IMG/VR virus record: IMGVR_UViG_2711768022_000007
DNA from: a virus
Taxonomy: Duplodnaviria > Heunggongvirae > Uroviricota > Caudoviricetes
DNA length: 4,583 bases
Strand: one strand, 5' to 3'
In this document: positions 1 through 4,583 of the stretch, in pieces
Layout: each line of letters opens with the position of its first letter
Position numbering within the stretch: the first letter of the stretch is position 1
The notes under the pieces: model-generated
Told to the model about the DNA's origin: nothing
The model's database searches: none
The model's input: the letters and a program-made list of their open reading frames with translations, nothing else
Made by a program: the position numbers and the translations under genes

Positions 1-79
1 GCTTTGAACTCTTTAGAGTAACGTTGGGTTTTTCTGCTCATTATTAGCTCCTTCTGATGCCATTCTATTTCAGGAAGGA

Positions 80-343
80 GTGTCCGTTAAACTCAGGCTA
101 CCTCAGGTTATTCGCTTCTGGGCATGGGCGGATCAACAAATGATAGACGGTAATGCAGATTGTAACGCTCGCGGCGTTACAAAAAGTGCAATAGATCGCA
201 TCACTTTTATGTCTGGTTTTGCTGATGCGTTAATTCAGGTTGGATGGCTGGTCGAAAATGACGGAGGGCTTTCTCTACCTAACTTTGAACGTCATAACGG
301 AAAAAGCTCTAAAAAAAACGGGCGGTTACAAACGAGCGAGTAA
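80..343 (+). CDS. Phage replication protein, YdaU-like (DUF1376-type), N-terminal fragment; frame is interrupted
   Basis: ORF from GTG at 80 (the only canonical start after the in-frame TAG at 14-16), preceded by AGGAAGGA at 72-79 with short spacing. It ends at TAA 341-343, but a protein-like reading continues in the -1 frame from the A8 run at 311-318. It sits directly upstream of the DnaC-like gene, the position of the initiator in Rac and lambda. The family name is from recalled synteny, not from a search. Confidence 0.55.
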   Translation: MSVKLRLPQVIRFWAWADQQMIDGNADCNARGVTKSAIDRITFMSGFADALIQVGWLVENDGGLSLPNFERHNGKSSKKNGRLQTSE

Positions 344-1498: not shown

Positions 1499-1514
1499 AG
1501 TTTCAGGAGGATTT

Positions 1515-1937
1515 ATGGCGAAACCTTTTACTCCCGAACAGCGGGAAGAACTGAAGACGCGAATTGTGGAACTCGTGCATCAGGACGGTCGGGTCACGAT
1601 TCGGCAGTTGTCAGATGAAACAGGTATCAGTCGTGCGTCTGTCGGTCGCTTATGCATAGAACTGGTCGCAAGTGGTGATGTATATAATTCTGGCTACGGC
1701 TTATTCCCGTCTGAACAGGCTCGCAAGGACTGGCAAAGCGCCCGCAAAAAACTCTCGAGAGTAAAGGTGAGGAAACCGGTTGTTGTTGATCCGGACCTTA
1801 TCTGGTCATTACCTGACGGAGAAATACGCCGCTACGACAGGCGCCTGAATATAATCTGTCGCGAGTGCCGGAAGAGCGAAGCTATGCAGCGTGTACTGGC
1901 TTTCTATCAGGGTAATTTTCAGGAGGCGATACTGTGA
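1515..1937 (+). CDS. ren: Ren-like protein (lambda ren family, Rex-exclusion resistance), 141 aa
   Basis: ATG at 1515 with a perfect AGGAGG at 1505-1510. The C-terminus (NIICRECRKSEAMQRVLAFYQG) matches the lambda Ren C-terminus as I recall it (NLVFKECRQSAAMKRVLAVYG). The N-terminal part has a helix-turn-helix-like stretch (RVTIRQLSDETGISRASVGRL). It lies immediately downstream of the P/DnaC-like gene, as ren does in lambda. It is longer than lambda Ren (96 aa) because of a central insertion of roughly 45 aa. The frame is open back into the gap, so an upstream start cannot be excluded. Confidence 0.6.
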   Translation: MAKPFTPEQREELKTRIVELVHQDGRVTIRQLSDETGISRASVGRLCIELVASGDVYNSGYGLFPSEQARKDWQSARKKLSRVKVRKPVVVDPDLIWSLPDGEIRRYDRRLNIICRECRKSEAMQRVLAFYQGNFQEAIL

Positions 1938-1994
1938 ATGAAATTAGCTATCAGGCTTCAATTACCGCTGGCATTCGCATCAAAGGAGAGGAGC

Positions 1995-2351
1995 ATGGAA
2001 ATAAAACCAGAAGATGAGTTAAGCAATATCGTTTTATTTCCGGTAAAAGAGGATGACCCTCGTAATCAGGTTAATTTTCTTTATGAGCCATCGGAAAGAC
2101 CATATTGCCATCACGCCTCTGTACGGGTTGACGAAAAAGAGCGTCAGGTCCGCTGTAAAATCTGCGGTGCGGTTGTGGAGCCGTTTGACTGGATGCTCTC
2201 TGTGGCAAAAAGAGAAACCAGACTGGCAGATGATGTAAGGCTATTGCGCCAGGAGGAACAGGAAAGGCGGAGAAATATAGAAAAGCTGATACAGATTGAG
2301 CGTAACGCGAAAGCGCGGATACGCAGGGCGACAAAATCCAGAACTGAATAA
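1995..2351 (+). CDS. Hypothetical small protein with Zn-ribbon-like motif and C-terminal basic coiled-coil region
   Basis: ATG at 1995 with AAGGAG/GGAG at 1984-1993. An alternative start is the ATG at 1938, which directly abuts the ren stop (TGAATG) and has AGGAGG 11 nt upstream. The motif C-H-H, then 18 residues, then C-x-x-C (PYCHHASVRV...RCKICG) is followed by a charged heptad-like tail (RLLRQEEQERRRNIEKLIQIERNAKARIRRA). Codon periodicity looks good. I do not recognise the family. Confidence 0.6.
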   Translation: MEIKPEDELSNIVLFPVKEDDPRNQVNFLYEPSERPYCHHASVRVDEKERQVRCKICGAVVEPFDWMLSVAKRETRLADDVRLLRQEEQERRRNIEKLIQIERNAKARIRRATKSRTE

Positions 2352-2456
2352 TTAAATTTAGCACTGTTAAAAATTTAATCCTTAACCGGAGGGATTTCTG
2401 CACCCTCAAATCATCAGGAGACCACCCGAAAGGGCGGGGAGCAGTCACACATCTGT

Positions 2457-2485
2457 TTCCGATAGCCCCGTTCTAATGCTACACT
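2457..2485 (+). promoter_or_regulatory. Weak candidate sigma70 promoter upstream of the QueH-like gene
   Basis: TTCCGA (2457-2462), 17 nt spacer, TACACT (2480-2485). The -35 is poor. An alternative -35-like TTGATA sits at 2488-2493. Confidence 0.2.
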
Positions 2486-2498
2486 CTTTGATATTTTT

Positions 2499-3185
2499 AT
2501 GACCCCAATAAACATATTTATGACAGTTGCTGATTTCAAACGGCCCAAATTGGAGCTCCCAAACGGGGCAAACAAACTACTACTGCACTCTTGCTGTGCT
2601 CCATGTTCCGGTGAGGTGATGGAGGCGCTTCAGGCCTCGGGAATCGACTACACCATCTTTTTCTACAACCCGAACATTCATCCTCAGAAAGAGTATTTAA
2701 TTCGTAAGGATGAGAATATTCGCTTTGCTGAACAACACGGCGTGCCGTTTATTGATGCTGATTACGACACAGACAACTGGTTTGAACGAGCCAAAGGAAT
2801 GGAATGGGAGCCCGAACGAGGGATCCGTTGCACCATGTGTTTTGACATGCGTTTTGAGCGGACAGCGCTGTACGCCGCTGAAAATGGTTTCAGTGTGATC
2901 AGCAGTTCACTGGGCATTTCACGCTGGAAAAATATGCAGCAGGTTAACGACTGTGGGCGGCGAGCCGTCGCGCATTATCCGGGCATGGTGTACTGGGATT
3001 ATAACTGGCGCAAGCAGGGCGGCTCGTCCCGTATGATTGAAATCAGCAAGCGCGAAAAATTCTATCAGCAGGAATATTGTGGCTGTGTGTATTCTCTGCG
3101 CGATACCAATCTACACCGCAAATCTCAGGGACGCCCTCTTATCAAAATTGGTCAACTCCACTACGGTAAAGAAGAGAAGGAGTGA
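2499..3185 (+). CDS. queH: QueH-like epoxyqueuosine reductase (DUF208 family, Fe-S, cobalamin-independent)
   Basis: 228-aa ORF carrying the motifs I associate with DUF208/QueH: [25 protein letters not shown] and YCGCVYS. The alternative start at 2520 is in frame; neither ATG has a clear Shine-Dalgarno. Assignment is by motif recognition only. Confidence 0.75.
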
Positions 3186-3206
3186 TTTTATGGGGCACCT
3201 TTCTGA

Positions 3207-3236
3207 TTGATTTCATATTGGCGAGGTAAGTAGAAT
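3207..3236 (+). promoter_or_regulatory. Candidate promoter of the hok/mok mRNA
   Basis: TTGATT (3207-3212), 18 nt spacer, TAGAAT (3231-3236). The predicted start near 3243 gives a 5' end GGGUGCUUGAGGCU..., which resembles the 5' end of plasmid R1 hok mRNA as I recall it. Confidence 0.45.
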
Positions 3237-3297
3237 GACTGCGGGTGCTTGAGGCTATCTGCTTCAGGCATGAACACCAAAAGGCAGATAGAGAAAA

Positions 3298-3364
3298 GCC
3301 CCAGTTAACATTACGCGTCCGGCAAGACGCTTAACATTAATCTGAGGCCAATTTCATGCTTTGC
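3298..3364 (-). ncRNA. sok: Sok-like antisense RNA (antitoxin of the hok/sok type I system); approximate extent
   Basis: Minus-strand promoter-like elements: -35 TTGCCT (complement of 3394-3399), 17 nt spacer, -10 TAACCT (complement of 3371-3376). The transcript would start near 3364 and be antisense to the mok translation-initiation region (mok ATG at 3356), as in known hok/sok loci. The 3' end is not defined; I found no clean terminator. Confidence 0.35.
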
Positions 3365-3568
3365 ACATGTAGGTTAGCCTCTTACATGCCGAAAGGCAAG
3401 GAGAAGCAGGCTATGAAGCAGCAAAAGGCGATGTTAATCGCCCTGATCGTCATCTGTTTAACCGTCATAGTGACGGCACTGGTAACGAGGAAAGACCTCT
3501 GTGAGGTACGAATCCGAACCGGCCAGACGGAGGTCGCTGTCTTCGTAGACTACGAATCCAGGAAGTAA
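3356..3568 (+). CDS. mok: Mok-like regulatory reading frame (in-frame N-terminal extension of Hok)
   Basis: ATG at 3356 with GAGG at 3344-3347. The N-terminal extension MLCTCRLASYMPKGKEKQA-MKQ... parallels chromosomal MokC (recalled as MLNTCRVPLTDRKVKEKRA-MKQ...). Same frame and same stop as hok. Confidence 0.5.
   Translation: MLCTCRLASYMPKGKEKQAMKQQKAMLIALIVICLTVIVTALVTRKDLCEVRIRTGQTEVAVFVDYESRK
3413..3568 (+). CDS. hok: Hok-family type I toxin (HokD/Gef-like, 51 aa, membrane-active)
   Basis: MKQQKAMLIALIVICLTVIVTALVTRKDLCEVRIRTGQTEVAVF... is near-identical to chromosomal HokD/HokC as I recall them until the last seven or so residues. AAGGAG at 3398-3403 lies 9 nt before the ATG. Single transmembrane helix plus the conserved C-terminal Cys region. 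Confidence 0.85.
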   Translation: MKQQKAMLIALIVICLTVIVTALVTRKDLCEVRIRTGQTEVAVFVDYESRK

Positions 3569-3576
3569 GAGTGACC

Positions 3577-3604
3577 GGGCGGGGAGCTGATCCCATCCCC
3601 GCCC
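3577..3604 (+). promoter_or_regulatory. Stable stem-loop in the hok mRNA 3' UTR
   Basis: Perfect 9-bp inverted repeat GGGCGGGGA (3577-3585) and TCCCCGCCC (3596-3604) with a 10-nt loop, just after the hok stop. It is not followed by a U-run, so it is structural or regulatory rather than a terminator. Confidence 0.5.
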
Positions 3605-3644
3605 ACCTCTGATGTGTCAGGCATCCTCAACGCACCCGCACTTA

Positions 3645-3688
3645 ACCCGCCCATCGCTGTGATCTCTCAGCGTTTCGGCGGGTTTTTT
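3645..3688 (+). terminator. Rho-independent terminator of the hok mRNA
   Basis: Outer stem ACCCGCC (3645-3651) pairs with GGCGGGT (3677-3683); inner stem CGCTG (3655-3659) pairs with CAGCG (3668-3672); a T6 run follows at 3683-3688. Confidence 0.6.
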
Positions 3689-3708
3689 GTTGTTTATTTC
3701 CGGTGAAT

Positions 3709-3736
3709 TTGATTCGCGCACCTTCGCAGATAGAAT
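3709..3736 (+). promoter_or_regulatory. Candidate sigma70 promoter for the downstream ORFs
   Basis: TTGATT (3709-3714), 16 nt spacer, TAGAAT (3731-3736), located just after the hok terminator and about 80 nt before the 3818 ORF. Confidence 0.35.
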
Positions 3737-3817
3737 CGACTCACTTAAGTAGCGCGCAGGGAGAAGAGGGATGGACCCCGAACAGGGGAGAGCTATTTAT
3801 CTGGAAGGATTCTGAAG

Positions 3818-4105
3818 ATGAAAATCGAAGAATTGCGTGAAATTTTTAGTGAAAATGGCCTCTATGCTGTGCGCGTTGAGAATGGAGCGATTGTCAGCCA
3901 TTGCCGCATTAGATGTTTGCAATCTCAACAAAGGAAGAGCGGTGCTGTGTTATTTTATTTTTGTAATGGACTTCTGACGGACGGTTTTATTTTGCGTGAG
4001 GACGAATTTGTCACATCATTACGGGTTTTGAAAGAGATTGGTTTTAAGGCTGGTTTTCTGCTTTTGCTGAAGAATAAACTCATCTACAATCTTGAGCAGG
4101 ATTGA
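3818..4105 (+). CDS. Hypothetical protein, 95 aa, AT-rich orphan ORF
   Basis: ATG at 3818 with AAGGA at 3805-3809 and an 8-nt spacer. Codon periodicity looks coding. It is visibly more AT-rich than its neighbours (about 38% GC in the first 60 nt by hand count). The stop TGA 4103-4105 overlaps a TTG at 4102. I do not recognise the family. Confidence 0.5.
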   Translation: MKIEELREIFSENGLYAVRVENGAIVSHCRIRCLQSQQRKSGAVLFYFCNGLLTDGFILREDEFVTSLRVLKEIGFKAGFLLLLKNKLIYNLEQD

Positions 4106-4143
4106 ACTCCTGCTGTGTAACACCGTGCCACCGGAGAAAGCCG

Positions 4144-4497
4144 ATGGCACATATACAACTGGTCAAACAAACCTCTTCCGGATTACTTCTCCCGGCGACG
4201 CCGGAGAGTTGCGATTTTCTGCATCAAATCAAAATAGGTGAGTGGATACACGCAGACTTTAAGCGTGTGTGTAACTACGCATTCCACAAGCGTTTTTTCA
4301 AACTCCTGCAACTGGGTTTCGATTACTGGACTCCGGTCGGTGGGGCGATCACGCCTCGCGAACGAAAACTGGTGTCCGGTTTCGTTGATTACCTGTGTGA
4401 ATCAGTAGGCCGGGAACATACGCCAGCTCTGAGCGAAGCCGCAGAGCAATTGAGGTGTACTGGCAATAGCGGACACTACCATTTGTTCTTTTTTTAA
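4144..4497 (+). CDS. Conserved lambdoid nin-region hypothetical protein, possibly DUF1367-like and shorter than expected
   Basis: ATG at 4144 with GGAG at 4133-4136 and a 7-nt spacer. The track start is the TTG at 4102, which overlaps the upstream stop. The N-terminus MAHIQLVKQTSSGLLLPATPE...ADFKR...AFHKRFF resembles my memory of a prophage family common in E. coli nin regions (DUF1367); this is tentative. It ends at TAA 4495-4497 and no other frame continues it. Confidence 0.5.
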   Translation: MAHIQLVKQTSSGLLLPATPESCDFLHQIKIGEWIHADFKRVCNYAFHKRFFKLLQLGFDYWTPVGGAITPRERKLVSGFVDYLCESVGREHTPALSEAAEQLRCTGNSGHYHLFFF

Positions 4498-4508
4498 GCA
4501 GCCATCTG

Positions 4509-4583
4509 ATGATATTTTTCCCTGAAGGCTGCCGGGGAGATATTCCCCAGACGAGAGTGACGACGCTGACGATTGTAGAAAAT
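4509..4583 (+). CDS. 5' end of an ORF running off the window (MIFFPEGCRGDIPQTRVTTLTIVEN...), unknown product
   Basis: ATG at 4509, 11 nt after the upstream stop and in the same orientation. There is no clear Shine-Dalgarno and only 25 codons are visible. Confidence 0.25.
   Translation, partial: MIFFPEGCRGDIPQTRVTTLTIVEN

Follow-up and report, generated by a model that had tools for sequence, protein, structure and literature searches.

The viral record IMGVR_UViG_2711768022_000007 (Caudoviricetes), whose whole stretch of 4,583 nucleotides (nt) we call the window, contains four small modules between a DUF977 gene on the left and the first half of a DUF1367 gene on the right: a gene for a protein with a zinc ribbon and a long basic helix, the tRNA-modification gene queH, a hok/mok/sok toxin-antitoxin locus and a homologue of the antirepressor gene rem. 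An original prediction, made from the letters of this DNA and its open reading frames (ORFs), had described here a variable cargo block made of a Zn-ribbon/coiled-coil protein, QueH, hok/mok/sok and an AT-rich ORF of 95 amino acids (aa), and all four are indeed found where it had put them. It had also described the block as spaced out, unlike the tightly coupled replication genes, and this agrees with the measured distances: the spacers of the block are 57, 168, 57 (to the start of the hok mRNA), 249 and 38 nt long, whereas the gaps between the replication genes are 6 and 14 nt.

The idea of a variable block can be judged by looking at related prophages. Our sample consisted of 80 viral contigs from IMG/VR, fetched as the best matches to one DUF977 protein, plus several annotated Escherichia coli prophages. 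In the 65 loci that have both DUF977 and a right anchor, the interval is 1.7 to 5.8 kb long and contains 61 clusters of plus-strand cargo proteins, arranged in 43 distinct architectures. The flanks are thus kept while the content varies, as had been anticipated; the gene content is not invariant across relatives, and the genes are not core nin functions. One adjustment is needed. The right flank itself alternates between two gene sets, DUF1367-DUF1364-DUF1133 (Q) in 30 of the 65 loci (including three loci with the form of DUF1367 truncated by an insertion sequence, IS) and DUF968-RusA-Q in the other 35.

DNA homology to the window breaks repeatedly at the same positions among these relatives, the recurrent junctions being located at about 1926-1966, 2395/2437, 2449, 3191, 3220-3239, 3636-3650, 3671-3745 and 4127/4144. 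We counted the coverage of each module in 82 loci outside the lineage of the window (these are lower bounds, many contigs ending early). DUF977, whose homology ends at 1926-1955, is present in at least 81 of the 82; the zinc-ribbon module (breaks at 1914/1965 and 2395/2437) in at least about 47; the QueH cassette (2449 to 3191) in at least five; the hok module (3220-3239 to 3636-3650), the least variable member of the interval, in at least about 64; the rem module (3671/3745 to 4150) in at least about ten; and DUF1367 (from 4127/4144) in at least 26. One junction has the form of a short linker (2373-2437, plus strand), which is retained whether or not a locus has the zinc-ribbon gene and which corresponds, in other phages, to the region upstream of a gene for a 60-aa acidic DUF7167 protein. 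The QueH cassette of the window starts about 11 nt past this linker, so QueH appears to have replaced the DUF7167 gene set. Another junction is located within a gene: in loci L004 and L006, which have cargo inserted past hok, all that is left of rem on the downstream side is its first ~68 nt, from the -10 element onward in L004 (7457-7534) and together with the promoter in L006 (7077-7151). The 5' part of rem thus serves as a junction for recombination too.

The cargo found in sibling prophages at this slot includes several known systems. Rosmer (RmrT/RmrA) lies just past hok in L006 (5185-6919) and L030 (12351-14107), a Dcm methylase with an NgoMIV restriction enzyme just past QueH in L171 (4351-6361), and a hypothetical protein with a KwaB-like protein between QueH and hok in L174 (4375-6014). 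Doc/Fic with a small upstream gene is present in L002 and L056, orphan methyltransferases occur among the sibling cargo, and relBE occupies the slot in the Qin prophage of E. coli K-12. A cargo protein of 192 aa (L058, 10284-10862; also in L061 and L075) matches the PADLOC model PDLC02989 "cll" (E 2e-28) and has no match in Pfam. As siblings hold known anti-phage systems at the same junctions, the slot serves this phage lineage as a site for moron or defence cargo.

These observations lead us to the following reading, to which we give a probability of about 0.8: the interval is an accessory region of a Rac/Qin-type lambdoid prophage, built from exchangeable cassettes, with defence cargo in siblings. 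The phage would have been of the type with DicA/DicC-like immunity and YdaU/YdaV replication genes; its accessory region, which occupies the position of the lambda nin region, with the replication module on one side and the Q antiterminator module on the other, would have arisen through recombination of independently exchangeable cassettes at a few recurrent junctions. The first cassette, encoding the zinc-ribbon/long-helix protein, would be read through from the early operon together with DUF977. The second, queH, would be a chromosomal capture that brought its extended -10 with it, is putatively expressed in the lysogen and would perform a cobalamin-free reduction of epoxyqueuosine (oQ) alongside QueG. 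The third would be a complete type I toxin-antitoxin, hok/mok/sok, with a killing function predicted from its family, and the fourth, rem, would encode an antirepressor of the DicA-like repressor of the phage, under a conserved promoter of its own.

The QueH cassette (2449-3191, plus strand) consists of a single gene, with a coding sequence at 2520-3185. The protein covers positions 1-174 of the 175 of the profile PF02677 (DUF208) with 220.6 bits, against a cut-off of 23.5, and aligns to Thermotoga maritima QueH (7LC5, E 5e-22) with the motifs CCAP, CxxC and YCGC retained. We take the cysteines of these motifs to be the Fe-S/iron site of QueH, as in the structure paper. The start at 2520 is the codon conserved in an alignment of upstream regions, in preference to 2499, the start of the longer ORF chosen by the earlier reader. 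An extended -10, TGCTACACT, is located upstream at 2477-2485; the sequence TGCTACA(C/A)T shows no variation among the phage cassettes or in the regions upstream of chromosomal queH in three other genera, while the surrounding bases differ. This conservation identifies it as the predicted native promoter of queH, which travelled with the gene. The closest relatives of this QueH outside Escherichia are encoded by the chromosomal queH genes of Scandinavium (92% identity), Kluyvera and Enterobacter; the Scandinavium gene has ordinary, non-phage chromosomal neighbours, and its DNA homology to the window is limited to 2472-3189. All this points to the capture of queH, with its promoter, from an enterobacterial chromosome. 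The gene has a G+C content of 49% and is no outlier in a remnant of about 49%; we found no terminator of its own. Within prophages its ratio of nonsynonymous to synonymous substitution rates (dN/dS) is 0.02-0.05, indicating strong purifying selection. In the contexts sampled, queH always directly follows DUF977, and the isolated phage HannyBb carries it.

The last two steps of queuosine synthesis take place on tRNA and are catalysed by QueA and then by QueG (or QueH) (PMC9508795). In 5,426 complete E. coli genomes, queG is universal (5,426/5,426) and queH is present in 995 (about 18%). QueG requires cobalamin, QueH does not, and E. coli is unable to make B12 de novo (as reportedly described by Miles in 2011 and Zallot in 2017). 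The most likely role of the prophage protein is therefore that of a second, B12-independent oQ reductase, predicted to be expressed in the lysogen. We go one step further, tentatively and with a confidence that stops short of even odds, in suggesting that prophage queH may be a lysogenic-conversion gene acting on the tRNA epitranscriptome, allowing lysogens to complete queuosine when B12 is scarce or its uptake has been lost. If true, roughly a fifth of sequenced E. coli would have a self-promoted, cobalamin-independent epoxyqueuosine reductase encoded by a Rac-like prophage or by its remnant, and queH lysogens would differ in the decoding of NAU/NAC codons and in gut fitness. An extension, which we consider less likely, is that the neighbouring zinc-ribbon protein also has a host-directed function, not yet described. 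No paper describing a prophage-borne QueH or DUF208 protein was found in the literature searched, and we regard this widespread, apparently self-promoted and B12-independent QueH on E. coli prophages as the most interesting lead to come out of the window.

The hok locus follows. A promoter (3207-3236, plus strand; TTGATT, 18 nt, TAGAAT) came from the consensus scan, and its -10 hexamer at 3231-3236 is conserved in relatives. The predicted full-length hok mRNA (3243-3690, plus strand) contains tac (3243-3254), mok (3356-3568), hok (3413-3568), fbi (3625-3637) and a terminator (3644-3690). The mok ORF encodes 70 aa, begins translation in a site overlapping the predicted Sok target and is in frame with hok, an arrangement that compares with that of K-12 mokC/hokC. 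The Hok peptide matches PF01848 (E 1e-22, 79.9 bits against a cut-off of 22) and phrog_251 (E 1e-32), the Hok-family matches in NCBIfam being below cut-off. On the hok strand, Rfam model RF01794 matches 3243-3418 over all its 157 positions, with 117 bits against a gathering score of 59, and the mRNA start at about 3243 coincides with position 1 of the model. Being on the hok strand, this match recognises the leader with the Sok target; Sok itself would be read from the minus strand (3288-3364, ends approximate), from a candidate promoter TTGCCT-17-TAACCT at 3399-3371, a position that we presume by analogy with Sok of plasmid R1. In the minimum free energy fold of 3243-3692 (-191.5 kcal/mol, z -8.07), 3243-3254 pairs with 3625-3637, i.e. 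the tac/fbi lock, and the terminator consists of a terminal hairpin and a U-run (-22.8 kcal/mol, z -4.9). The locus thus appears intact, with the full anatomy of its family, and it is the sole addiction or exclusion module of the window. By analogy with its relatives, a stable folded hok mRNA kept in check by an unstable Sok should kill upon loss of the element or upon a shut-off of host transcription; exclusion of T4 by hok/sok has reportedly been described (Pecota and Wood, 1996). Two small peculiarities distinguish the window from sibling loci: its hok promoter spacer is 10 nt shorter, which brings a different -35 into register, and about 23 extra nt in the terminator loop form a second small hairpin.

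The AT-rich ORF of 95 aa (3818-4105, plus strand), for which the original prediction could assign no function, is a homologue of Rem (phrog_340). Its identity to K-12 Rem is 68% over an alignment of 80 residues (E 2e-34), 36 columns of the Rem alignment are invariant in six sequences, and a search of Rem against the PDB gave no match. Its G+C content is 39.6%, versus about 49% for the remnant. In K-12, Rem relieves the repression of dicBp by DicA 165-fold (Ragunathan et al. 2023, PMC10448788) and causes filamentation that depends on DicB/DicF (PMC10448788). From this homology and from the function of K-12 Rem, it follows that the gene belongs to the phage induction circuit; by sequence, it is a Rem-family antirepressor, a matter of phage regulation rather than of cargo as earlier supposed. 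Hence, one of the two genes previously without assignment now receives a function, the zinc-ribbon gene still having none. One may also speculate that the Rem of the window acts in trans on other resident prophages. The consensus scan gives a promoter-like site at 3709-3736 (plus strand; TTGATT, 16 nt, TAGAAT), and the -10 sequence ATAGAATC at 3730-3737 (hexamer TAGAAT at 3731-3736) is invariant in seven loci, including K-12 Qin. No LexA box of the form CTGT-N8-ACAG is present near 3700-3817, matches elsewhere being at the level expected by chance. This contrasts with LexA control of the Gifsy type; PMC10448788 describes the condition that induces K-12 Rem as unknown as well.

Two further features of rem deserve mention. 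Its leader of about 80 nt (3737-3817, CTTAAGTAGCGCGCAGGGA..AAGAGGGATGG...) is near-invariant in seven loci, including K-12 Qin, with no stable RNA fold predicted; it may be an operator or a site of translational control. The C-terminal tail is divergent: it has 15 residues in the window (LLLLKNKLIYNLEQD, 4058-4105), and the Rem proteins of K-12 and Rac 442/2 have a tail of six residues after KAGF.

The zinc-ribbon gene (1995-2351, plus strand) matches phrog_1621 (E 3e-56). Its match to the TFIIB-type ribbon Zn_Ribbon_TF of Pfam is weak and below cut-off, and sequence and fold searches with the protein gave no informative match. The AlphaFold2 model (predicted local distance difference test, pLDDT, 76) consists of a small ribbon and a single helix of 55 residues (63-117). 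In 30 homologues, C38, H40, C54 and C57 are invariant, as is much of the C-terminal helix (LR.EE..RR..I.KLI.IE.NAK.RIR), and dN/dS is 0.02-0.09, again indicating strong purifying selection. The homologues are confined to Enterobacterales, the few named ones being called hypothetical or "bacteriophage protein"; some are annotated as ead/Ea22-like, which is consistent with fusion to an Ea22-like domain, and the gene also matches, on the opposite strand, genomes of Shiga toxin (Stx) phages in a region with the same annotation. We can say no more than that the protein is small, conserved and zinc-binding and has a long basic helix; it probably forms dimers and has a nucleic acid or a host protein as its target. 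The gene has a good ribosome-binding site and neither a promoter nor a terminator of its own. It follows DUF977 in about half of the loci, usually 60 nt past it, and is probably co-transcribed with it. This means that the view of the gene as one more self-contained module has to be revised: it is a frequent, semi-constant companion of DUF977.

How far each module can be said to carry its own signals is best judged by conservation, because a plain consensus scan does no better than shuffled sequence (four promoter-like sites seen against 4.3 expected, three terminator-like sites against 4.9, neither above chance). Conservation backs signals in each of the three spacers between the four modules. 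The original claim of own signals for every module is supported by these conserved elements for queH, hok and rem and fails for the zinc-ribbon gene: hok alone has both a predicted promoter and a predicted terminator, rem has a conserved -10 and queH a conserved extended -10. Terminators after the zinc-ribbon gene and after QueH, and a structured rem leader, were considered and dropped, as the folds of the two spacers (zinc-ribbon to QueH, QueH to hok) and of the leader show no structure beyond that of shuffles.

This distribution of signals bears directly on an alternative in which all four genes are ordinary delayed-early genes, expressed only in the lytic cycle from the early rightward promoter, with no role in the lysogen, the spacers being mere scars of recombination. 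All the genes are co-oriented with the early operon, and the zinc-ribbon gene without a promoter, QueH without a terminator and a consensus scan at the level of chance are what such a scheme would predict. We nevertheless think it improbable. The queH -10 has been kept across genera while its surroundings diverged, the -10 elements of hok and rem and the hok terminator are conserved, and a hok/sok locus cannot work without constitutive promoters of its own. Moreover, close relatives differ in the presence and absence of these genes.

A second alternative, which we rate as equally improbable, grants a role in the lysogen and changes its nature: QueH and/or the zinc-ribbon protein would be unrecognised anti-phage or counter-defence factors, for instance if the queuosine status of tRNA biased translation against or for an infecting phage. 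The company that these genes keep is in its favour, the same slot holding in siblings Rosmer, a restriction-modification pair, a KwaB-like pair and toxin-antitoxins, as are the strong conservation of the zinc-ribbon protein, in Enterobacterales only, and a 2026 preprint whose abstract ties queuosine to phage resistance in Shewanella. Yet neither protein has a match in PADLOC, neither gene has a partner gene that travels with it, and QueH, with all its catalytic motifs kept, is 92% identical to the product of a chromosomal, non-phage queH.

We thus prefer to read the interval as an accessory region of exchangeable cassettes, and several points weigh against this reading and should be acknowledged. 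With QueH lacking a terminator and the zinc-ribbon gene a promoter, these are not strict morons. All the promoters, and the Sok RNA, are predictions from sequence and conservation, made where the raw scan is not above chance. The counts describe a sample of best matches to one protein, with crude ORF calls. The benefit to the cell of a second oQ reductase is only putative. The window does not contain the DicA-like partner of Rem; the immunity region lies outside it because the remnant starts inside ydaU. PADLOC, run on six proteins of the window, gives nothing for the cargo and weak helix-turn-helix noise for DUF977 (NCBIfam likewise gives nothing for the cargo other than Hok, and a helix-turn-helix match far below cut-off for DUF977). 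Finally, the majority of cargo families in this slot are small unknowns and not recognised defence genes: of 63 cargo proteins scanned, a minority match PADLOC models, the scan of these representatives as a container alignment being dominated by RmrA and methyltransferase models, with no clean count. The expression "moron or defence hotspot", used in the original prediction, has to be divided accordingly. Sibling prophages do carry known systems at the QueH-hok and hok-rem junctions; PADLOC recognises none in the cargo of the window itself. The slot is a mixed accessory site that includes defence systems, as seen in siblings, and its status as a hotspot in the statistical sense is only putative.

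One may also ask if the interval is simply junk decaying in a dead remnant, the ORFs being intact only because the decay is recent. The window does look like a ruin: two IS ends bound it, its ydaU has suffered a +2 insertion and a 10-nt deletion, and its DUF1367 has been halved. But its cargo matches that of an intact prophage at 100% identity, purifying selection acts across lineages on QueH (0.02-0.05) and on the zinc-ribbon gene (0.02-0.09), and QueH, hok and rem are all present in an isolated, viable phage, so that we regard this explanation as very improbable. That QueH could serve phage DNA modification by 7-deazaguanine chemistry instead of tRNA modification is suggested by phages known to carry queuosine-pathway genes for that purpose (PMC6884629), and is hardly credible here, as QueH acts on the last, tRNA-bound step (PMC9508795), as the gene is nearly identical to chromosomal queH, and as the annotated 27-kb stretch of a sibling prophage contains no DpdA, QueC, QueD or QueE; we rejected it.

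Mosaic accessory regions and morons are textbook features of lambdoid phages, and the region is of a known kind. The lambda nin region (ren to Q), dispensable and mosaic among lambdoid phages, likewise separates the replication genes from the Q antiterminator and has the same orientation, and the left neighbour of our interval shares a C-terminal motif with Ren. In contrast, no gene of our interval is a lambda nin gene, DUF1367 has no pairwise similarity to NinB, and the lambda nin genes are tightly packed whereas the spacers of the window are 57-249 nt long, with conserved promoters. The moron concept of Juhala/Hendrix comes from lambdoid phages such as HK97 and HK022, in which an extra gene with its own promoter is present between the same neighbours in some phages only; queH, hok and rem fit this description, except that only hok has both promoter and terminator and that the G+C content of queH is unremarkable.

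The nearest described relative is the relBE-hokD-rem segment of K-12 Qin (PMC6379469). It has the order hokD-rem followed by the Q module, a Rem 68% identical to ours, and a conserved hok-rem spacer, terminator and rem leader. It differs in having relBE upstream of hokD, where the window has QueH, and DUF968 as right anchor, where the window has DUF1367; the insertion of relBE also cut the hokD ORF from about 70 to 51 codons (PMC6379469), whereas the window keeps a full hok leader. With plasmid R1 hok/sok and the chromosomal hok/mok loci of E. coli, the window shares Hok, the in-frame mok, the Sok-target leader, the tac/fbi pairing and the terminal hairpin; it differs in being prophage-borne and in the 10-nt promoter deletion and ~23-nt terminator-loop insertion relative to its siblings, and its killing function is a prediction. 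The defence hotspots of P2/P4 (PMC9122126; Vassallo et al. 2022, PMC9519451) resemble our slot in their conserved phage flanks and short variable cargo including defence systems. They belong to another phage family and another site, and our slot has a mixed content (one metabolic gene, one toxin-antitoxin, one regulator and many small unknowns), only a minority of its cargo families matching defence models. What is gained is a map, with junction coordinates, of a cargo slot in Rac/Qin-type prophages, which are very common in E. coli and Shigella. As it holds known defence systems beside dozens of small unknown genes, it is a practical hunting ground for genes of phage-host interaction.

The genes that flank the interval had been labelled Ren-like and nin-like. 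On the left, the winged-helix protein DUF977 (LygF; 1515-1937, plus strand) matches PF06163 (E 1e-33) and phrog_142 (E 3e-44); on the right, DUF1367 (IrsA; 4144-4450, plus strand) matches phrog_319 and positions 1-102 of the 198 of PF07105, being cut by the IS at about residue 103. Both labels agree with the names of the PHROG profiles ("Ren-like" for phrog_142, "nin-like" for phrog_319), Pfam using DUF977 and DUF1367. In direct comparison, DUF977 shares with lambda Ren only a C-terminal motif of 20 residues (60% identity), and pairwise comparison of DUF1367 with lambda NinB reveals no similarity (E = 7).

The window is an IS-bounded prophage remnant rather than a whole prophage. IS3-family ends in the same orientation are present at both termini, an orfA start at 1-95 (minus strand, translation MSRKTQRYSKEFK) that truncates the ydaU-like replication gene, and an orfB C-terminus at 4450-4583 (minus strand, translation IFYNRQRRHSRLGNISPAAFREKYHQMAA, ending ...REKYHQMAA); the phage DNA is thus reduced to a remnant of 4.35 kb, with an IS copy on either side. 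On the plus strand it reads: ydaU-like pseudogene, DnaC/IstB-like ydaV, DUF977, the four genes and the first half of DUF1367. Over 1500-4450 it is 99.9% identical to the intact prophage L001, located beside ybhA/modC in E. coli FDAARGOS_944, and homology to the intact 199-aa DUF1367 gene of L001 stops at 4450. The ydaU-like initiator (105-782), its 5' end cut by the IS, is a frameshifted pseudogene: homology to L001 starts at 105, and the insertion is in an A-run (~320-327), the deletion at ~452. The phage in this genome is dead, its four cargo genes intact.

The intact sibling has, on its left, an integrase, a RecE-family pseudogene, Gam, a DicA-like repressor (62% identical to K-12 DicA), Cro/YdaT and YdaU/YdaV, then the same block, followed by DUF1367-DUF1364-DUF1133 (Q), tRNAs, lysis genes and head genes. 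From this gene order and the DicA-like repressor, the phage of the window is of the Rac/Qin-type lambdoid kind. Near-identical protein fragments carry the label Shigella sonnei, which suggests, rather than proves, that the source is Shigella. A run of 277 N interrupts ydaV at 1222-1498; to judge from the coordinates of the intact copy, the sequence that is missing or masked there is in reality about 312 nt long, as the offset shifts by 35. Directly after the Q gene of L001 are four tRNA genes (Ile, Arg, Thr and Gly; 16275-16585), none of them a queuosine-modified species.

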